DNA of 64,000 nt. It comes from Patescibacteria group bacterium. GTDB taxonomy: Bacteria > Patescibacteriota > Minisyncoccia > Moranbacterales > UBA2206. Under the pieces are notes generated by a model. That model saw only the letters and a list, made by a program, of their open reading frames with translations. It was not told the origin of the DNA and searched no databases. The stretch covers positions 82,988 through 146,987 of the forward strand of contig JAKLFF010000002.1 in the NCBI GenBank assembly GCA_022711335.1, read 5' to 3'. Below, piece after piece: positions 4,098 through 58,906 of this stretch. Both the position numbers and the translations under genes were made by a program. Each line of letters begins with the position of its first letter. The stretch's first letter is position 1.

Positions 4098-6275
4098 ATG
4101 ATACATTTGGATACCCCTCTTAAAAACATTTCTAAAATCACCCCTAAATACGCCAAAGTTTTGGAAAAAATGGGCCTCGTTACTGTCCAGGATTTTTTGT
4201 TGTATTTCCCTTTCCGCTATGATGATTTTTCAAAAACCGTGGAATTGGGTCAGAATTATCTGGGTGAAACTATAACGGTCGAAGGAACAATTATAAAAGC
4301 CAAGAATATCAGAATTTTCAGGCGAAAAATGACAATCACGGAAATTGTCATTCAAGATAAAAACAACACCCCGTTAAAAACAGTTTGGTTTAATCAGCCC
4401 TATATTTTAGAAAATTTAAAAGAGGGCGAGTCAATCAGATTGTCCGGAAAATTGGCAATCGATAAAAAGATTTTTTCCATGGCTAATCCCGCCTGGGAAA
4501 AAGCTTCGCGCGATGCGACCAATACTGGAAGACTGGTCCCAGTTTACAGCGAAACTGCCGGCATTTCTTCCAAGTGGATCCGCTGGCAGATAAAGCCGCT
4601 TCTTCGATTTGCCAAAGATATTCCGGATATTTTACCAGAAGAAACAAGAAAAAAATTTAATCTCTATGATCTCCGCACAGCCATAACCCAGATTCATTTT
4701 CCGGATTCCCGCGAAAAACTGGTACGTGCCCAAAAAAGAATGGCTTTTCAAGAAATGTTTTTGGTCCAGCTCAAATCTTTGCAAGTTAAAAAACAATGGG
4801 AGAAAAATAACTCTATTGATATCAAATTCGATGAGAAATTAATCAAGGAATTTGTAGAAAAACTTCCATTCAAATTGACTAACGCGCAAAGAAAAGCCTC
4901 TTTTGAAATTCTAAAAGACCTCGAAAAATCAAAGCCGATGAACCGGCTGCTTGAAGGCGACGTCGGATCGGGAAAAACAGTCGTCGCGGCTATCTCCACG
5001 CTACAATCTATCTCGGCAGGTTATCAAGTAGCCATTATGGCGCCGACAGAAGTCTTGGCGCGGCAGCACTTTGAAAGTTTTTGCAAGTTATTTGAGAATT
5101 ACGGAATAAACATAGCCCTGTTGACAAATTCTTACCAAGAGATTAACAATTTTCAATTTTCAATTTTCAATTTTCAATCAATTTTCAATGACAAAATTTT
5201 AAAAAATAAAAAAAATAGCAGAGAATATTTATTAAAAAGTACAGCAGATGGAAAAATAAATTTAATAGTAGGAACACATGCTCTTATTCAAAAAGACGTA
5301 AGATTCAAGAATTTGGCTTTAATTATTATCGACGAACAGCATCGCTTCGGAGTGGCGCAACGTGCAACTTTGCAACAAGAAACGATGAGTATAAAAGACC
5401 CCGTAAAGTCGCCTAACGGCGACCACGGGGCAAGCGGCGAGATTAAAACTATCTCCCATCTTCTCACTATGACTGCTACGCCTATCCCGAGAACTTTAGC
5501 CATCGCTTTTTTTGGCAGCCTGGGTCTTTCAATTCTTGACGAAATGCCTAAAAACCGAAAGCCGATTGTCACTAAAATTGTCCCGCCCTCTGCCAGAAAT
5601 CAAAATTATAATTTCATCCGGCAGGAAATTGGATCCGGACGGCAGGTTTTTGTCATTTTCCCGCTAATTGAAGAATCAAAGGCTCTCTCGGAAGTGAAAG
5701 CGGCCGCAGAAGAATATAAAAAACTGCAGGATATATTTCCGGATTTTGAAATCGGACTTTTGCATGGACGAATGAAGCCAAAAGAAAAAGAAGAAACTAT
5801 GCAATTTTTTAAAGAGCAAAAAACTAAAATCCTTGTTTCCACTTCTGTTATTGAAGTCGGCATTGATATCCCGAACGCCACAGTTATGATCATTGAAAAT
5901 GCCGAAAGATTCGGGCTTTCCCAGCTTCATCAATTCCGCGGCCGTGTTGGCCGGGGCGAGCATCAGTCGTATTGTTTCCTTTTCACTGAAAGTAACACTC
6001 AAAAATCCATTGAAAGACTAAAAGCCCTTGAAAAAACCAATGACGGATTCGAGATCTCCAAAATCGATCTGGAACTGCGCGGTCCCGGACAATTTTTCGG
6101 CACAATTCAATCCGGCCTTCCAGACATCACCATGGAGAATCTGAGCAATGTGAAACTCATTAAATTCGCCCGCGAGGAAGCCACTAATTTGTTAAAAGTT
6201 GACCCCCGACTAAAAAAGCACCCGCTTTTGGCAGATGCTCTTTTGAGATTTTCAGAGAAGATTCACTTGGAATGA
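4098..6275 (+). CDS. recG: ATP-dependent DNA helicase RecG
   Basis: Has a wedge/OB N-terminal region, helicase motif I GDVGSGKT, motif II DEQHRFG, TATPIPRT and the downstream RecG signature. It also carries two internal insertions (features 5147-5190 and 5399-5430). Confidence 0.9.
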   Translation: MIHLDTPLKNISKITPKYAKVLEKMGLVTVQDFLLYFPFRYDDFSKTVELGQNYLGETITVEGTIIKAKNIRIFRRKMTITEIVIQDKNNTPLKTVWFNQPYILENLKEGESIRLSGKLAIDKKIFSMANPAWEKASRDATNTGRLVPVYSETAGISSKWIRWQIKPLLRFAKDIPDILPEETRKKFNLYDLRTAITQIHFPDSREKLVRAQKRMAFQEMFLVQLKSLQVKKQWEKNNSIDIKFDEKLIKEFVEKLPFKLTNAQRKASFEILKDLEKSKPMNRLLEGDVGSGKTVVAAISTLQSISAGYQVAIMAPTEVLARQHFESFCKLFENYGINIALLTNSYQEINNFQFSIFNFQSIFNDKILKNKKNSREYLLKSTADGKINLIVGTHALIQKDVRFKNLALIIIDEQHRFGVAQRATLQQETMSIKDPVKSPNGDHGASGEIKTISHLLTMTATPIPRTLAIAFFGSLGLSILDEMPKNRKPIVTKIVPPSARNQNYNFIRQEIGSGRQVFVIFPLIEESKALSEVKAAAEEYKKLQDIFPDFEIGLLHGRMKPKEKEETMQFFKEQKTKILVSTSVIEVGIDIPNATVMIIENAERFGLSQLHQFRGRVGRGEHQSYCFLFTESNTQKSIERLKALEKTNDGFEISKIDLELRGPGQFFGTIQSGLPDITMENLSNVKLIKFAREEATNLLKVDPRLKKHPLLADALLRFSEKIHLE
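5147..5190. repeat. Microsatellite (AATTTTC)n of about 6 units inside the recG reading frame
   Basis: caattttcaattttcaattttcaattttcaatcaattttcaatg encodes NNFQFSIFNFQSIFN, in-frame between helicase motifs I and II. Confidence 0.8.
5399..5430. repeat. 32-bp palindromic element inserted in-frame in recG
   Basis: CCCCGTAAAGTCGCCTAACGGCGACCACGGGG encodes PVKSPNGDHGA. It reappears in reverse orientation at 36089-36121 as ccccgtggtcgccgttgaggcgactttacgggg. Confidence 0.75.
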
Positions 6276-7474
6276 TTCTCTATTGCTTTTTCATATACCA
6301 CCAGCATTTTTTTGGCGCAAACTGACGCCGTGAAATTTTCTCTGGCAATTCGCGCAGATTCTTCACCGGTTTTTTCCCTGAGTTTTTTATCCAAAATAAG
6401 TTTTGTGATCATATAGGCAAATTCCTTTTCTCCGGTTACGCAAGTCAGAAATCCGTTTCTGTTGTTTTGGACGAGACTAATCACGCCTGTCGCGCAGACA
6501 GCCACAACCGGAAGCCCCATATACATAGCCTCCGTAAGAACCATCCCTTGAGTTTCTGACTTAGAACCATAAACAAAAATATCTCCAGCCGCGTAGCAGT
6601 CTTTTATCTCCGATCTCGGAATTATTCCGGAAAAAACGACCTGCTCATAAATTCCATTGTCTTTGCAATATTTTTTAAGCTCCGGAAGGAGATATCCGTC
6701 TCCGGAAACCAAAAATTTCACATTTTTTCTTTCTTTGAGTATTTCCCTCACCGAGCGAAAAACAAATTCAATATTTTTTTCCGCCGTAAGCCGCGTTGCC
6801 AGGAACAAAAGAACTTCATTCTCTTTTATTCCATATTTATCACGAGCTTTTTTCCTGTCGGGATTTTTGAATTCTTCCTCGATTACTCCGGTAGGCACCA
6901 CATAGATTTCTTTTTTCACCCTGTTAAATACGCCTTCGGCGTCCCCGCCTTGCGGGGATTTAACAGGATGAACTCCCCAATTTTTGAGAATCGGAATGAC
7001 TGAATCTGTGGGAACCACGACCGCATCCGCCTGATTGGCAAATTTAACTGCTTTCTTGATCATATAGCCGGCAACAAATTTTTTTGGCAGAAACGGAACA
7101 AAATTCGCATAATAATCATAAAGAGTGTGCCAGGTAAAGACCAGCGGAACTTTTTTCCTTTTTGCCCACTTTCGGGCCGCTGATCCTAGAAGATTTGGAT
7201 GCTGGGAGTGGATTACATCGATTTTCAATTCGTTTAAAATTTTGCTAATTTTCCTCGAATATGGAATAACCAAAGGAAATTTTATTTTTATTTCAAGATT
7301 AATGGATGGGTAGCGGAAAATATTCGGATCTTTATCTGCATAGCCCGGAAAGTGCGGCGCGAAAATATATACAGTATGGCCAAGTTTTTCAAATTCCCTC
7401 CGAAAAGTTTCAATTGATGTCGAAACGCCATAGGGATTAGGAAGATAATTGTTCGTAAAAATTGCAATATTCAC
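6263..7474 (-). CDS. Glycosyltransferase family 4 (GT-B fold)
   Basis: Has the N-terminal IAIFTNNYLPNPYGVSTS motif and a C-terminal EXXXXXXXE-like region typical of GT4. The start is ambiguous. The ORF track uses TTG at 7507, but I favour GTG at 7474, which gives MNIAIF and directly abuts the element terminus. Confidence 0.75.
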   Translation of the reverse strand: MNIAIFTNNYLPNPYGVSTSIETFRREFEKLGHTVYIFAPHFPGYADKDPNIFRYPSINLEIKIKFPLVIPYSRKISKILNELKIDVIHSQHPNLLGSAARKWAKRKKVPLVFTWHTLYDYYANFVPFLPKKFVAGYMIKKAVKFANQADAVVVPTDSVIPILKNWGVHPVKSPQGGDAEGVFNRVKKEIYVVPTGVIEEEFKNPDRKKARDKYGIKENEVLLFLATRLTAEKNIEFVFRSVREILKERKNVKFLVSGDGYLLPELKKYCKDNGIYEQVVFSGIIPRSEIKDCYAAGDIFVYGSKSETQGMVLTEAMYMGLPVVAVCATGVISLVQNNRNGFLTCVTGEKEFAYMITKLILDKKLREKTGEESARIARENFTASVCAKKMLVVYEKAIENHSK

Positions 7475-7604
7475 CCGGTAGTGAAATTTTGACTGGCCTT
7501 CCGTCAATAAAGCATAGATGGCTCAGAAAAAATTTTATTAAAAATTATTCTAAATAAAAATTTTTGTAACCCGGGTTCTTTAATGTCAAAATTCTACTAC
7601 CGGG
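7474..7604. mobile_element. Inverted-repeat (MITE-like) element copy 1, 131 bp with 20-bp terminal inverted repeats and a 4-bp target duplication TTCA
   Basis: The left end is cccggtagtgaaattttgac at 7474-7493 and the right end is gtcaaaattctactaccggg at 7585-7604. ttca at 7470-7473 is repeated at 7605-8608 region start, namely 7605-7608. The interior is AT-rich. The glycosyltransferase GTG start overlaps the element terminus. Confidence 0.7.
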
Positions 7605-9379: not shown

Positions 9380-9403
9380 TATAAAAGCGGCGTAAGATGC
9401 CGC
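9380..9403 (-). terminator. Hairpin terminator separating the tRNA-Glu island from dedA
   Basis: GCGGC-gtaagat-GCCGC at 9387-9403, followed by a T-tract when read on the minus strand. Confidence 0.4.
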
Positions 9404-9414
9404 TTCTCTATTCA

Positions 9415-9485
9415 GTAGCCCTGTTTACAGGATGCCACCCGGAGGGTGGTCAGCCTCTGGCTGAAAAACCGGAAAGTTTTAAAAT
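9415..9485 (-). repeat. Copy W: degenerate tRNA-Glu 3'-half copy carrying the 30-nt insert
   Basis: gtagcc, then an 18-nt T-arm deletion, then cctgtttacaggatg, ccacccggagggtggtcagcctctggctga, aaaaccggaaagttttaaaat. It is a 66-bp perfect direct repeat of 10600-10665. Confidence 0.7.
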
Positions 9486-9671
9486 AGTAGACTACTTGCT
9501 CAATAGTTGGAACTAAGTTATCAAAAAATTGAAAGCGTGGCAAGAATTGAAAATAATTGCAACGGCGGATTTTATTAATTAAACCATATATTTTTCTTTA
9601 AATATAGGGAGTGAATCAAAAAATGTTCTTTGTAGAATTATATCTGCGACGGCCTGTTTGGTATGGAGCAA

Positions 9672-10388
9672 TTAAACTTTAAACTGCCTCTTCCAGTCTC
9701 CGGTGGACTTGTGAATACTTGGGTGGATAGCGCCAACACTCTTTAAGTTTTCAAGTGCTCGATTAATGATATGTCGAGCTCTGCTTTCAGCATCGGAAGC
9801 TTCAAAATCATCCGCTTCGCTGAAAGGCTGATATCCGTACTTTGCGAATATGTTTAGAACTTCACTTTGACGTTTTACAACCCCGACTCTGTCGCTAGGA
9901 TCCTGAAGTTTGCAAAGCCAGTCCAGAACCGAAGCAAAGTTAGTAAAATCCAGATTAGGTAACTGTTGCATCAATTTGTCGTATTCCTGTTGAGCTTTTT
10001 CTATATTTTTTTTGCCCTCGAGAACCCTGCGTTTATTCTCCCGTTTCTTCGTTTCTTTCTGTTTTTTAATTTCAAGAGCTGCGCGCTTCCCTTCAGGCGA
10101 GTTAAGATATCGATCATAACTTTCTTCAACTTTTCTTCTGTAATCATCAATGATATCTTGTGGATTTGATTTCTCATCGGCTGTGAGCATAATTCCATTA
10201 AACTCTTTCTCCACTTTTCCTTTTGTTTTCGCAAGAGCAACCATTCGCTCAGCAAGAATTGTTATATGATTAGCAAGATCTAGTTCATCCATATTCTCTG
10301 GTTTCATTGGTTTCATTCTTTCCATATCTTTTTCACAATAATTATAGCTTATTTTAATTAATTCCCGTTTTTTACTTGAATAAGCCAC
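9672..10388 (-). CDS. Hypothetical coiled-coil protein of 238 aa, the only gene in the repeat-bounded 1.1-kb segment
   Basis: The ORF is K/E-rich and has no recognisable domain. It lies between the direct repeats at 9420-9485 and 10600-10665. Confidence 0.5.
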   Translation of the reverse strand: MAYSSKKRELIKISYNYCEKDMERMKPMKPENMDELDLANHITILAERMVALAKTKGKVEKEFNGIMLTADEKSNPQDIIDDYRRKVEESYDRYLNSPEGKRAALEIKKQKETKKRENKRRVLEGKKNIEKAQQEYDKLMQQLPNLDFTNFASVLDWLCKLQDPSDRVGVVKRQSEVLNIFAKYGYQPFSEADDFEASDAESRARHIINRALENLKSVGAIHPSIHKSTGDWKRQFKV

Positions 10389-10395
10389 TATATGA

Positions 10396-10468
10396 ATTCC
10401 CGCGAAGGCAGGAATCTAGTGTGGTATTTTAGCTTATTTTCTGGATTCCCGGTCAAGCCGGGAATGAC
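10396..10468. repeat. Degenerate copy of the double-hairpin palindromic element seen downstream of trpS
   Basis: attcccgcgaaggcaggaatctag ... ctggattcccggtcaagccgggaatgac, compared with gtcattcccgcgaaagcgggaatcca ... tagattcccgctttcgcgggaatgac at 49559-49635. Confidence 0.55.
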
Positions 10469-10575
10469 AAAATAGGGTTAATGTTAAGTGAGCTCTTATG
10501 TTTATATTTTATCATAAAAAGTTCCAACTGTCCCAAGAGGTACAAAAAACAAGACCTTTGGCCTTATTTTTTCTG

Positions 10576-10665
10576 TGTAGCCCTAAGGGGAATCGAACCC
10601 CTGTTTACAGGATGCCACCCGGAGGGTGGTCAGCCTCTGGCTGAAAAACCGGAAAGTTTTAAAAT
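10576..10665 (-). repeat. Copy Z: tRNA-Glu 3' half carrying the 30-nt insert in the anticodon, preceded by a non-tRNA 17-mer
   Basis: The minus strand reads ATTTTAAAACTTTCCGG, TTTT, [TCAGCCAGAGGCTGACCACCCTCCGGGTGG], CATCCTGTAAACAGGGGTTCGATTCCCCTTAGGGCTACA. It ends immediately before the intact tRNA. Confidence 0.75.
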
Positions 10666-10667
10666 TG

Positions 10668-10739
10668 TAGCCCTAAGGGGAATCGAACCCCTGTTTACAG
10701 GATGAAAACCTGCTGTCCTAACCACTAGACGATAGGGCC
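10668..10739 (-). tRNA. tRNA-Glu (anticodon TTC), intact
   Basis: The reverse complement reads GGCCCTATCGTCTAGTGGTTAGGACAGCAGGTTTTCATCCTGTAAACAGGGGTTCGATTCCCCTTAGGGCTA. It folds as a full cloverleaf with anticodon loop TTTTCAT. Confidence 0.85.
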
Positions 10740-10816
10740 AGTAATTATTCTTCTATATAATAGTATTTTTTAATTTTACTTTTAATGACGTAAACATAAT
10801 TCATAAATTTAAAGTT

Positions 10817-10896
10817 CCTGTTTACAGGATGCCACCCGGAGGGTGGTCAGCCTCTGGCTGAAAAACCTGCTGTCCTAACCACTAGACGATAGGGCC
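10817..10896 (-). pseudogene. Copy X: tRNA-Glu 5' half, the 30-nt insert and the anticodon 3' stem, truncated before the T-arm
   Basis: The minus strand reads GGCCCTATCGTCTAGTGGTTAGGACAGCAGG, TTTT, the same 30-nt insert, CATCCTGTAAACAGG, and then unrelated AT-rich sequence. Confidence 0.75.
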
Positions 10897-10975
10897 GCTT
10901 AACCAAAAGAAAGTGCCCTAAGGCACAATCTGACAGGCTAAATCAAATAGATTCTAACATGGAATTATTGCCTGG

Positions 10976-11665
10976 TCAATCATTATCGCAGCATAAAACG
11001 TTTTGTGCATGAAAAAAACGGCTATTTTGGGGATCTCGGATTCCGACTGCCCTTAGATGCTTCCCCAAAATATCTTCCGCTTTTCCGTCAATACGCGCAC
11101 TGCCATCAAGCTTGAGCTCTACGATTTGCCCATCCTCTTCTTCAATAACTATTTTTTCGAGAGATATGCTTTTTATCCTTCCGTCAATTGCTATTTCCTT
11201 GGGAATTTTACTTATTCCCAATCCTTTAAACATCAACTTATAAATATCTGCTAAAATAAAAACAACCATCAGAAATACGACAACACCAACAAGCGCCAGT
11301 ATGATTAGATTTGGAGACATCCCGGTCTGATAGCACAAATCAAGCTTTTTGGAAAAATAAAGCGTAAGCATCAAAATTCCGATAAAAAGGGCTACTTTTC
11401 CATAAGGGATAGTCAGAAGAAAAACTTTAAGCCCAGGAAAACCGAGAAGCAAAAATTTCATCACCCCTGTCTTTTTTAGGACAAAAAAGAAGATACTCAT
11501 TAGGAAAGCTCCTCCCAAAAGACCAGCAACCATCGCGCATTCCAGTCCCAGTTTCTTAGCTAAAACTGCCGACGGACTGGAAATACAAATCCTCTTTTTC
11601 TTGATTTCATTCATTACTCTGCTTTTCATGTCTATTTGCGATTTCTTAAGTTGTTCTTCTTCCAT
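10976..11665 (-). CDS. Membrane protein immediately downstream of the ECF sigma factor; candidate anti-sigma factor
   Basis: It has a cytoplasmic N-terminal segment of about 45 aa, then several TM helices and a C-terminal soluble domain. It is probably in the same operon as the sigma factor (its start is at 11665 and the sigma gene ends at 11690). The call rests on gene order only. Confidence 0.4.
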   Translation of the reverse strand: MEEEQLKKSQIDMKSRVMNEIKKKRICISSPSAVLAKKLGLECAMVAGLLGGAFLMSIFFFVLKKTGVMKFLLLGFPGLKVFLLTIPYGKVALFIGILMLTLYFSKKLDLCYQTGMSPNLIILALVGVVVFLMVVFILADIYKLMFKGLGISKIPKEIAIDGRIKSISLEKIVIEEEDGQIVELKLDGSARIDGKAEDILGKHLRAVGIRDPQNSRFFHAQNVLCCDND

Positions 11666-16190: not shown

Positions 16191-16263
16191 GCGCCGTTAG
16201 CTCAGTCGGTAGAGCAGTTGGCTCTTAACCAAACGGTCGGGGGTTCGAATCCCTCACGGCGCA
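16191..16263 (+). tRNA. tRNA-Lys (anticodon CTT)
   Basis: GCGCCGTTAGCTCAGTCGGTAGAGCAGTTGGCTCTTAACCAAACGGTCGGGGGTTCGAATCCCTCACGGCGCA has anticodon loop CTCTTAA and a layout similar to E. coli tRNA-Lys. Confidence 0.8.
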
Positions 16264-16273
16264 CAAATTAATT

Positions 16274-16345
16274 CTCCCTGTAGTTCAACGGATAGAACAC
16301 CAGCCTTCTAAGCTGGATATGGAGGTTCGATTCCTCCCGGGGAGA
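16274..16345 (+). tRNA. tRNA-Arg (anticodon TCT)
   Basis: CTCCCTGTAGTTCAACGGATAGAACACCAGCCTTCTAAGCTGGATATGGAGGTTCGATTCCTCCCGGGGAGA has anticodon loop CTTCTAA. Confidence 0.78.
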
Positions 16346-16377
16346 CAAAATGAATGATAGAAATAGGATCTCTATAT

Positions 16378-16450
16378 GGCGGTCATCGTCTAGCGGCTAA
16401 GACATCGGTTTGTGGTACCGAGAATCTGGGTTCGATTCCCAGTGACCGCC
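16378..16450 (+). tRNA. tRNA-His (anticodon GTG) with an encoded G-1
   Basis: GGCGGTCATCGTCTAGCGGCTAAGACATCGGTTTGTGGTACCGAGAATCTGGGTTCGATTCCCAGTGACCGCC has anticodon loop TTGTGGT. Confidence 0.82.
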
Positions 16451-16466
16451 CTGTCAGCAAAAAAAT

Positions 16467-16539
16467 GCGCCCTTAGCTCAATGGATAGAGCGTCTGGCTT
16501 CGGACCAGAAGGTTGGGGGTTCGAGTCCCTCAGGGCGCA
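16467..16539 (+). tRNA. tRNA-Arg (anticodon TCG)
   Basis: GCGCCCTTAGCTCAATGGATAGAGCGTCTGGCTTCGGACCAGAAGGTTGGGGGTTCGAGTCCCTCAGGGCGCA has anticodon loop CTTCGGA. Confidence 0.78.
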
Positions 16540-16565
16540 CAATCAATTCTTTTGCTAAATCCAAC

Positions 16566-58329: not shown

Positions 58330-58810
58330 GGGGATGTTTTGGTTTCGACAGGTTGTACATTTAAAATAGGCAAGCCGAGCTCGATAGCGCCTCGTTAAAC
58401 CGCTGTCAAAATTACAAGTGCAAACTTCGTAACAAAAGCAAAGAATGCGATTGCGCAAGCTTTCAGCACCAACTTTGCCTACGCTTTAGCCTAATTTTTT
58501 AGGCTTTAGCCATCGAACCGCTGATTTCTAATAAGCGAACTTCGGTGCCAACTATTAGAATAGCGCGTATTGCATTTCCTTGGCAATATGCGTAAAATTT
58601 ACCCCCCACCACTTATTGCTAATTATAAAATAGGAATCTATAATAATAACAAAATAACGGCGGGTTATAAGTGGTGGGGGGTGAACATAGGAATAAATCA
58701 AAGTAATTTTTCTTATTTCTATCTTTGATCGAAAACAATAAATAAGATAAGCTTGTAGATTGTTTTGAATGAATAATTTTGGACGCGAGTTCGATTCTCG
58801 CCATCTCCAC
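58330..58810 (+). ncRNA. ssrA: tmRNA (ssrA), encoded directly downstream of smpB
   Basis: The 5' end GGGGATGTTTTGGTTTCGACAGG pairs with the 3' end GGACGCGAGTTCGATTCTCGCCATCTCCACC to form a tRNA-like acceptor and T-arm. The internal tag frame GCAAACTTCGTAACAAAAGCAAAGAATGCGATTGCGCAAGCTTTCAGCACCAACTTTGCCTACGCTTTAGCCTAA encodes ...NFAYALA and a stop. Pseudoknot-like ccccccaccac / gtggtggggg pairing is present. Confidence 0.7.
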
Positions 58811-58811
58811 C

Positions 58812-58906
58812 GCGTAAAATGAAATTTTTTTGAAAAAAATTTCATCACGCGGTAGGCACGTGGTGAAAAAAATTTAAAGATTTTTTTCACTTTACGTGCC
58901 ACCGTA
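58812..58906 (+). terminator. Two consecutive hairpins after tmRNA
   Basis: cgcgtaaaatgaaattttttt / gaaaaaaatttcatcacgcg, and ggcacgtggtgaaaaaaa...tttttttcactttacgtgcc. Confidence 0.45.

Follow-up and report, generated by a model that had tools for sequence, protein, structure and literature searches.

Why should an intact tRNA-Glu gene stand among broken copies of itself, each of which carries the same 30-nt insert inside the anticodon? This question is raised by positions 9,415 to 10,896 of the window, i.e., the whole 64,000-nt stretch of a Candidatus Moranbacteria genome (candidate phyla radiation, CPR) that was analysed. A sequence-only reading of the window had described a 5' half-copy (X), the intact tRNA-Glu(TTC), a 3' half-copy (Z) and, beyond a 1.1-kb one-gene segment, a truncated repeat of Z (W), and had taken them for the scar of site-specific integration. 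The comparison with related loci points to a different origin. With a probability of roughly 0.6, a selfish cassette that targets tRNA-Glu genes has left a defunct copy of itself here; such a cassette carries a small GIY-YIG nuclease gene, an intact tRNA-Glu and the insert itself, a double hairpin (DH). The features of the locus are as follows:

10862..10896, minus strand: copy X, a pseudo 5' half with tRNA-Glu nt 1-35 (35/35 identical to 10705-10739)
10832..10861, minus strand: DH copy 1 (in X), TCAGCCAGAGGCTGA + CCACCCTCCGGGTGG, between tRNA nt 35 and 36
10817..10831, minus strand: remnant of tRNA-Glu nt 36-50 (CATCCTGTAAACAGG), the end of X, read from the sequence
10745..10804, minus strand: remnant of the GIY-YIG nuclease open reading frame (ORF), 19 codons and a stop (alignment with the intact ORF of locus L005; tblastn)
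10668..10739, minus strand: intact tRNA-Glu(TTC), the functional copy (ARAGORN; Rfam tRNA, 66.6 bits)
10645..10665, minus strand: leader of copy Z, ~15 nt of non-tRNA sequence and GGTTTT (tRNA nt 30-35)
10615..10644, minus strand: DH copy 2 (in Z), an exact match of the insert core
10576..10614, minus strand: copy Z, a complete pseudo 3' half with tRNA-Glu nt 36-76 (39/39 identical to 10666-10704)
10544..10565, minus strand: terminator-like hairpin and T-run after Z (AAGGCC AAA GGTCTT GTTTTTT), read from the sequence
9672..10388, minus strand: cargo ORF of 238 aa, in the variable segment between Z and W
9465..9485, minus strand: leader of copy W, identical to the Z leader
9435..9464, minus strand: DH copy 3 (in W), an exact match of the insert core
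9415..9434, minus strand: copy W, a truncated pseudo 3' half with nt 36-50 and GCTAC and an 18-nt T-arm deletion
9383..9405, minus strand: terminator-like hairpin belonging to the resident flank, immediately ahead of the VTT-domain gene, read from the sequence

Copies X, Z and W and the intact gene were found as the sequence-only reading had described them, and their resemblance is far beyond chance, since the 29-nt insert core occurs three times without a mismatch and not once in 100 shuffled sequences. The single tRNA-Glu(TTC) called at the locus by both ARAGORN and Rfam lies at 10739-10668. The copies form a 72-nt repeat family with three members, 9419-9490 (W), 10599-10670 (Z, 99%) and 10816-10887 (X, 78%), and the 52-nt core common to all three comprises GGTTTT, the insert and CATCCTGTAAACAGG. 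The placement of the 30-nt insert between tRNA positions 35 and 36 is unambiguous, and its folding into two hairpins (6-bp stems, 3-nt loops) was likewise borne out. Smaller corrections concern the Z leader, which exists but is made of ~15 nt of non-tRNA sequence followed by tRNA nt 30-35 instead of 17 non-tRNA nucleotides, and the exact Z/W repeat, which is real, as is the deletion in W, but spans 67 nt and not 66 bp. An omission concerned the sequence after X. It had been considered unrelated, but it contains, ahead of the intact tRNA, the 60-nt nuclease ORF remnant. Upstream of X, the end of the anti-sigma ORF shares sequence with a promoter-like site on the minus strand (TTGACC-17-TAGAAT, with TG), and a terminator-like hairpin lies between this site and X (window 10913-10926 and 10951-10979, minus strand).

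What this remnant once was can be seen in L005, a near-identical strain (cargo protein 99% identical), in which an intact 81-aa GIY-YIG ORF (5489-5734) lies between X and the intact tRNA. The window retains the first 51 and the last 9 nt of this ORF (10804-10745), the rest having been removed in frame when an internal deletion took out 186 nt at a short repeat, and tblastn with the protein P0007 matches the window from 10804 downward. The 81-aa protein matches the Pfam family GIY-YIG (PF01541, 5.3e-17) over residues 1-71, so it is a catalytic domain from end to end. In an alignment of 43 homologs, residues Y5, Y16-I17-G18, R26, H30, E62 and N68 are invariant or nearly so, and by analogy with I-TevI they probably play the same catalytic roles. 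The AlphaFold2 model (pLDDT 92.6) adopts the alpha/beta GIY-YIG fold. Its best Foldseek matches are UPF0213 1zg2, Slx1 (TMq 0.65-0.70), the I-TevI catalytic domain and the UvrC N-domain, and the nearest solved relatives are UPF0213 1zg2 (3.7e-11) and 1ywl, followed by SLX1, I-TevI and UvrC-N. The dN/dS of the gene is ~0.07. Judged from its sequence and its model, the 81-aa protein looks like a working nuclease.

Homologs of ~80 aa are numerous in CPR phyla and in Bacteroidota (including Cytophagales, Flavobacteriales and Marivirga tractuosa). The family was surveyed in 81 loci, 79 of which came from a scan of one genome per species, with L001 and L005 added. In 69 of the 81 loci a same-strand tRNA-Glu adjoins the nuclease gene, which, as in a homing cassette, stands beside its presumed target gene and not inside an intron or intein. 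The composition of the loci was as follows:

49/81 loci: same-strand tRNA-Glu at most 40 nt downstream of the nuclease gene
12/81 loci: same-strand tRNA-Glu 41-400 nt downstream of the nuclease gene
8/81 loci: same-strand tRNA-Glu within 200 nt upstream of the nuclease gene
4/81 loci: tRNA-Ser, Arg or Ala instead of tRNA-Glu
8/81 loci: no tRNA call, several of these at contig ends
52/81 loci: X present
8/81 loci: Z copies downstream of the tRNA
5/81 loci: T-loop Z copies
6/81 loci: tandem nuclease genes

The nuclease stop codon is separated from the tRNA on the same strand by 4-25 nt. In the 52 loci with X a common layout recurs, in which tRNA nt 1-35 are followed by the ~30-nt DH, CATCC with a few further nucleotides and the nuclease start codon. 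The tRNA remnant behind the DH measures from 6 to ~20 nt depending on the locus, a variation that is consistent with the erosion of a once complete copy. Z recurs in L010, L015, L024, L026, L055, L066 and L069 and stands in three tandem copies in L071, and leaders comparable to that of the window's Z precede it in L010, L015, L024, L026, L069 and L071. In one Cytophagales clade the tRNA comes first and is followed by the nuclease gene and a 3' fragment; the DH occupies the T-loop (56/57), and the units form tandem arrays. The DH is thus located upstream of the nuclease ORF in one arrangement and downstream of it in another. Tandem arrays were found in L008, L048, L065, L071 and L050. In the last of these, from Marivirga tractuosa CP159478 (L050 2531-4700), a pair of tRNA-Glu genes precedes five tandem units of 383 bp, each of which is composed of a GIY-YIG ORF, a T-loop double hairpin, a tRNA 3' end and a terminator. 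Cassettes with homologous nucleases occur also at tRNA-Asn, Pro and Thr/Tyr genes.

The entry of the cassette into a resident tRNA gene is visible in L024 and L026. In both loci GGCCCGT, in the acceptor arm of X, finds its pairing partner at the 3' end of Z (ACGGGTC / ACGGGCT), and the intact tRNA between them is of another type (GCCGCCA / TGGCGGT). Because X and Z represent one tRNA type and the middle tRNA a different one, a resident gene must have been split at 35/36, and the inserted segment, as read from the sequences, is DH - nuclease - own tRNA-Glu - DH. The Z copy of L024 is itself chimeric and passes from the imported to the resident type within the T arm, which looks like a conversion tract; the junctions in L024 and L026 resemble those left by co-conversion of flanking markers. 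X differs from the neighbouring tRNA also in L020, L030 and L074.

The state before such an entry was found among more distant relatives, whose anti-sigma protein is 52-55% identical and in which the gene order TsaD / sigma / anti-sigma / VTT / hydrolase / glycosyltransferase is kept. At the slot of the window's X...W, these relatives hold only 229-430 bp or a different 155-aa ORF. Among them, L093 represents the empty site, as a plain tRNA-Glu differing by 1 nt lies in the same intergenic slot, on the opposite strand, and X, nuclease, DH and cargo are all missing. Its VTT gene is preceded by a hairpin comparable to that of the window (GAAGCGG...CCGCTTTTT). The synteny comparison which the sequence-only reading had proposed revealed both relatives without the cargo and the empty site. 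The tRNA-Glu of L093 (3743-3815) is oriented opposite to the anti-sigma and VTT genes, and the orientation in L001 is the same; the tRNA-Glu block has therefore apparently been inverted in the lineage of the window.

Closely related strains also differ at the locus. L086 (GCA_035453105.1) is identical to the window across it, and the same arrangement is present in at least five independent assemblies, so an assembly artefact was rejected. L005 retains an intact nuclease gene, whereas the window and L085-L092 have it deleted, a presence/absence polymorphism which, together with the empty site of L093, is in line with a homing cassette. L005 also lacks the 90-bp Z block, the terminator-like sequence that stands behind Z in the window following directly after its intact tRNA, and its W copy carries a T-arm deletion different from, and independent of, that of the window. 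Even strains with a 100% identical flanking anti-sigma protein vary, the DH loops being changed only by transitions, and an extra 20-nt hairpin is present in the D-arm of X in some strains of the window species (CCTGCCTGCCGGTAGGAAGG, after tRNA nt 12). This second type of insert consists of one GC-rich hairpin (~20 nt, CCTGCC...GGCAGG type) placed in the D-arm or D-loop, and was noted in the X copies of L089, L090 and L092 (~20 nt after the start of X), L017, L018, L022, L032, L045 and L071. In L089, which has a 100% identical anti-sigma gene and the order X-remnant-tRNA-Z, unrelated genes (NDK, endonuclease V, Ham1) begin at ~1390, just past Z, and mark a boundary of recombination at the tRNA-Glu locus, unless the assembly is chimeric.

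These strain differences indicate a variable and decaying arrangement and not a conserved functional split gene. They bear on the suggestion, made as an alternative in the sequence-only reading, that the copies belong to a split or intron-bearing tRNA-Glu, remnant or working, from which the 30-nt insert is removed at the RNA level; three copies conserved without variation would have favoured this suggestion. The composite of the X 5' half, the insert and the Z 3' half does fold into a cloverleaf whose anticodon loop carries the two hairpins, and inserts at D, anticodon and T loops are reminiscent of archaeal non-canonical introns. However, X lacks tRNA nt 51-76 and Z lacks nt 1-29, and their inserts and leaders are identical instead of complementary. 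Moreover, Z is present in only 8 of the 61 loci with a downstream tRNA, an intact tRNA-Glu is nearly always nearby, and W decays by different deletions in different strains. A full-length insert-bearing tRNA-Glu of the window lineage had no match in the metagenome scan. Rfam searches at the gathering and E<=1 thresholds returned nothing but tRNA at a meaningful score, so the insert belongs to no family known there, and with its 30 nt it is not ribozyme-sized. Taken together, a split or intron-bearing gene is scarcely credible.

The stretch between Z and W was regarded in the sequence-only reading as the inserted unit, a minimal island left by one or more integrase-mediated integrations into tRNA-Glu, with the integrase itself lost. 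It is indeed a variable one-gene segment bounded by direct repeats, its cargo gene is missing from the corresponding anti-sigma/VTT slot of four relatives, which also means that the 1.1-kb segment is not universal core genome, and integrases often target tRNA genes. Nevertheless, the primary unit appears to be X-to-Z, with the nuclease and the intact tRNA. No recombinase gene was found within ~5 kb (ten ORFs) of the locus or in the gene tables of L001, L005 and L085-L094. The repeats consist of the DH with both sides of the anticodon loop and not of a plain tRNA 3' segment, the intact tRNA stands inside, between X and Z, and not at one boundary, and the same junctions recur beside a GIY-YIG gene in dozens of genomes, never with an integrase in the tables inspected. 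The exact insert sequence also has no match in IMG/VR. Therefore, of the proposed integration scar, the mobile insertion into the anticodon loop with regenerated tRNA halves holds, while an integrase as its agent is very unlikely.

The cargo gene belongs, as far as its sequence context tells, to the variable region. Homologs are confined to its own lineage and L001-L004, the one in L001 being 67% identical and again placed downstream of an X-nuclease-tRNA-Glu unit, with different flanks. The ORF has no NCBIfam match and no credible Pfam match (one weak sub-threshold match to SAS4). The candidate role of a cassette component was rejected given this narrow distribution and the missing family match, and the gene was treated as incidental. 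Two ATTCCC...GGGAAT palindromes (gtcattcccggcttgaccgggaatcc and attcctgccttcgcgggaat; window 10400-10480, minus strand) are situated between the terminator after Z and the cargo ORF and are kept in L005.

The insert is neither crossover debris nor an intron and turned out to be a conserved and covarying structure at the same position in dozens of genomes. Covariation was analysed in 55 distinct 30-nt DHs chosen by a filter of at least 9 paired positions out of 12. Their stems are paired in 99.2% of cells, a value that is partly circular owing to this filter. The compensatory double changes are free of such circularity and occur at 10 of the 12 stem pairs, and 91 cells differ on both sides, compared with 26.6 +/- 3.4 after shuffling (a level reached in 0 of 500). 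In tRNA copies the DH is located at 35/36 (58 copies), at 56/57 (18 copies) or in the D-loop, and these position types largely track nuclease clades, the T-loop type being that of one Cytophagales clade. Retargeting of the nuclease by a guide-like DH was considered and rejected, as there was no sign of close proteins using different sites. The two loops of a DH tend toward mutual complementarity. A DH is therefore approximately a hairpin joined to its own reverse complement, i.e., a 30-bp palindrome made of palindromes. Non-Watson-Crick pairs are represented by 5 G.T and 4 C.A among 648 stem pairs, with no strand bias; strand-specific wobble is uninformative here and lends no support to an RNA-only role.

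From these loci we infer cleavage at 35/36, repair-based spread and a plug function of the DH, and homing, i.e., the repair of nuclease-induced breaks, seems the most likely mechanism. The active form would consist of the gene for the 81-aa GIY-YIG nuclease (UPF0213/SLX1-like), an intact tRNA-Glu and a 30-bp DH at each end, each terminal DH being embedded in anticodon stem-loop sequence. The nuclease would attack tRNA-Glu genes that have no cassette and break them in the anticodon loop, at 35/36 or close to it, and the break would be repaired by copying from the cassette-bearing allele, with the conserved tRNA on both sides serving as homology arms. The resident gene would thereby be split into the 5' pseudo-half X and the 3' pseudo-half Z, with a DH plugging either half where the break occurred. 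Such a plug would destroy the target site and block the folding of the tRNA, and the imported or rebuilt intact tRNA would keep the cell alive. One crossover or conversion 5' of the DH would yield X-nuclease-tRNA and one 3' of the DH would yield tRNA-nuclease-Z, and loci of either form exist. Tandem copies, deletions and rearrangements would arise as breaks recur and the repeats recombine with one another. In the history of the window, 186 nt of the nuclease gene have been lost, Z has been duplicated as W around the one-gene variable segment, and W has lost its T arm.

Several observations weigh against this interpretation. The window's X, Z and intact tRNA are identical wherever they overlap, so the copy present there bears no sign of a foreign origin. 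The intact tRNA next to the nuclease does not differ in its anticodon loop from the presumed target and would itself be open to cutting. The duplication of Z as W, with the cargo gene in between, is a further difficulty. The 81-aa protein has no separate DNA-binding domain, unlike I-TevI and the Seg proteins. The nuclease family has one partial match in IMG/VR and none among INPHARED phages or PLSDB plasmids, and these searches, near-empty like that with the insert in IMG/VR, give no support for a phage or plasmid origin, which was dismissed. The DH, in turn, is abundant elsewhere. A generic DH pattern was run on metagenome contigs (L096-L175), and the figures from it hold for the 83 copies among the matches listed, of which 79 lie outside tRNA-Glu and without a nearby nuclease gene. 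The DH may therefore have a life of its own, and its role as a plug is conjectural. Finally, the strong purifying selection on the nuclease would also fit a benefit to the host.

Such a benefit could come from a nuclease with a role in repair or defence that is co-transcribed with tRNA-Glu, the DH-bearing pseudo-tRNA acting as a structured leader or trailer which controls expression or stability. The low dN/dS, the tight same-strand linkage of only 4-25 nt between stop codon and tRNA, the promoter-like site upstream of X and the conserved structure of the DH are all in agreement with this possibility. On the other hand, the nuclease is deleted, without apparent consequence, in the window strain and in most sampled strains of the species, and the gene is absent from relatives. 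A leader or trailer function is also difficult to reconcile with a DH that precedes the ORF in one arrangement and follows it in the other, or with stems in which a strand-specific G.U excess is not found. The hallmarks of a selfish element are, moreover, seen in the tandem arrays, the chimeric junctions of X and Z and the patchy occurrence across phyla. A host-beneficial module is therefore distinctly unlikely.

The dispersal of the DH bears on a different explanation, namely that the DH is the primary mobile element, a 30-bp palindrome similar to miniature inverted-repeat transposable elements or repetitive extragenic palindromes, which the SLX1-like nuclease mobilises in cis or in trans. 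The nuclease would recognise the DH as a DNA structure (a cruciform or three-way junction), the DH would prefer hairpin loops, including the D, anticodon and T loops of tRNAs, and the duplicated tRNAs with a linked nuclease would be the survivors of selection after a DH had struck an essential tRNA gene. The prevalence of metagenome copies away from both tRNA-Glu and the nuclease is in accordance with this explanation. About half of the copies lie in long ORFs, 28 of 41 being read as SAxGGSAxGG, ~15 adjoin other tRNAs and 6 adjoin a homologous nuclease; elements of the TCCGCC/TCAGCC type are common at a distance from tRNAs and GIY-YIG genes. One in-frame double hairpin (CCCCGCAAGGCGGGG + ACGCCGAAGGCGT) is present in the window itself at 6930-6957 (minus strand), within ORF 6263-7507, where it is bounded by the inverted repeat CCTGTTAAAT/ATTTAACAGG and falls within the linker that joins the domains of a GT4 glycosyltransferase (HPVK-SPQGGDAEGV-FNRV, aa 184-193). 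L005 has it as well, at 9432, and in L008 at 7628 the stems differ yet pair (peptide SSAGGGGSPEAK). Recurrence and dispersal thus identify the DH as a member of a widespread family of palindromic elements and not as the debris of one event.

Further observations in tRNA genes favour a mobile DH. Single pseudo-tRNA copies contain up to two DHs at different loops (L084, L069, L039, L046), the DH of tRNA-Ser is also at 35/36 despite a different local sequence, flanking stems are enriched around the DH (9.6% vs 2.3%), and the structure-specific nuclease Slx1 is among the nearest solved relatives of the 81-aa protein. However, no target-site duplication or defined ends were seen beyond the DH itself, and we know of no mechanism by which a GIY-YIG nuclease alone inserts DNA. 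The position types also follow the nuclease clades, as is expected of inherited cassettes and not of free hopping. The DH as the primary element is a tentative and unlikely alternative.

A related and unlikely idea is that the DH, and not the protein, defines the target. When plugged and unplugged copies pair, the SLX1-like nuclease would recognise the DH looped out in a DNA heteroduplex or an RNA-DNA hybrid and would cut the unplugged partner opposite the loop, so that any DH-bearing sequence would become a self-templated homing site. If true, this would explain how one family came to occupy three loops of tRNA-Glu, position 35/36 of tRNA-Ser and the tRNA-Asn, Pro, Thr and Ala genes, as well as the spread of the DH into protein-coding genes, and would define a new class of structure-guided mobile element.

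For the selfish nuclease cassette, the nearest known systems, by analogy, appear to be phage SegB, collaborative homing and mitochondrial double-hairpin elements (DHEs). SegB is a protein of ~220 aa. In phages T4 and T6 it is a free-standing GIY-YIG homing endonuclease encoded in the tRNA gene cluster, cuts inside tRNA genes at the T-loop motif RAWTSGAAC and promotes the amplification of tRNA and segB in tandem, which depends on recombination (PMC13096335). It is not tied to one tRNA isotype, and the truncated SegB-short is non-toxic, so the C-terminal part matters (PMC13096335). The two systems have in common a GIY-YIG gene beside tRNA genes and tandem units, the latter seen here in L008, L048, L065 and L050. 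SegB, however, is phage-borne, whereas the present family is chromosomal, was not found in INPHARED or PLSDB, consists of the catalytic domain only and is mostly specific to tRNA-Glu. Its split pseudo-halves plugged by a DH are not described for SegB.

In collaborative homing, the free-standing F-CphI of cyanophages cuts the insert-free psbA allele, and the neighbouring group I intron protects the carrier by splitting the target. The intron is self-splicing and the gene remains functional, whereas here a non-splicing 30-nt palindrome inactivates the copy, and the cassette maintains the function through the second, intact tRNA that it brings along. A mobile endonuclease ORF of Allomyces, by which part of atp6 was duplicated, is situated near DHEs. 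According to Paquin et al. (2000), as summarised in a later text, the DHEs of fungal mitochondria are short, GC-rich elements of two adjacent hairpins, dispersed and in some cases located in rRNA genes; their identity across species suggests mobility, and their differences concentrate in the loops (PMC10085805). The likeness to the DH is one of form only, i.e., two adjacent short GC-rich hairpins, dispersed and partly inside genes. DHEs are mitochondrial, and in the text consulted neither bacteria, nor fixed tRNA loops, nor a link to GIY-YIG genes is reported for them (PMC10085805).

Integrative elements of tRNA genes resemble the cassette in that they insert into tRNA genes, often in the anticodon loop, restore a functional gene and leave partial repeats at their ends. 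They differ in relying on an integrase and an att-type crossover, neither of which is seen here, where a whole tRNA and a nuclease, ~0.4-0.5 kb in total, are accompanied by a palindromic insert at the junction. The non-tRNA copies of the DH read in frame as SAxGGSAxGG recall Rickettsia palindromic elements. The latter measure ~100-150 bp and differ from the DH in sequence, size and host group, and we know of no link between them and tRNA genes or nucleases. As for the nuclease, UPF0213/YhbQ and SLX1 are its best matches in sequence and structure (1zg2, 3.7e-11; Slx1, TM 0.70), and their domain is just as small. The depositions of the UPF0213 structures label them as hypothetical proteins, and SLX1 differs in that it needs SLX4 and acts on branched DNA; in the literature searched, no report linked UPF0213 or SLX1 to tRNA genes or double hairpins. 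Nor was a description of this tRNA-Glu/GIY-YIG/DH arrangement found in that literature, whose coverage mostly leaves out subscription journals. The combination of a chromosomal location, a tie to tRNA-Glu, a minimal nuclease with a spare tRNA and a conserved DH plug at fixed loops was thus not found described and is apparently new.

The other tRNA-related genes of the window are ordinary. Both the tmRNA gene (154 bits; 58330-58812, plus strand) and the cluster of four tRNA genes for Lys, Arg, His and Arg (16191-16540, plus strand) are without double hairpins or half copies.

Summarizing, the locus is of interest at several levels. In the lineage of the window, tRNA-Glu is a hot spot of rearrangement, marked by inversion, gene gain and recombination boundaries. 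For annotation, the cassette would account for odd tRNA fragments and for small ORFs labelled "GIY-YIG / excinuclease C domain" in CPR and Bacteroidota genomes, and the 30-bp double-hairpin palindrome would represent a new repeat family that occurs also in frame inside proteins. The nuclease is among the smallest candidate site- or structure-specific nucleases, and since the cultured Marivirga tractuosa carries five tandem copies, its cleavage specificity and the role of the hairpin are directly testable in that organism. If the interpretation as a selfish cassette is correct, it would reveal an overlooked strategy of selfish DNA, in which an essential and conserved gene provides both the target and the homology arms across phyla, and in which the element is rendered harmless by the spare copy that it carries.

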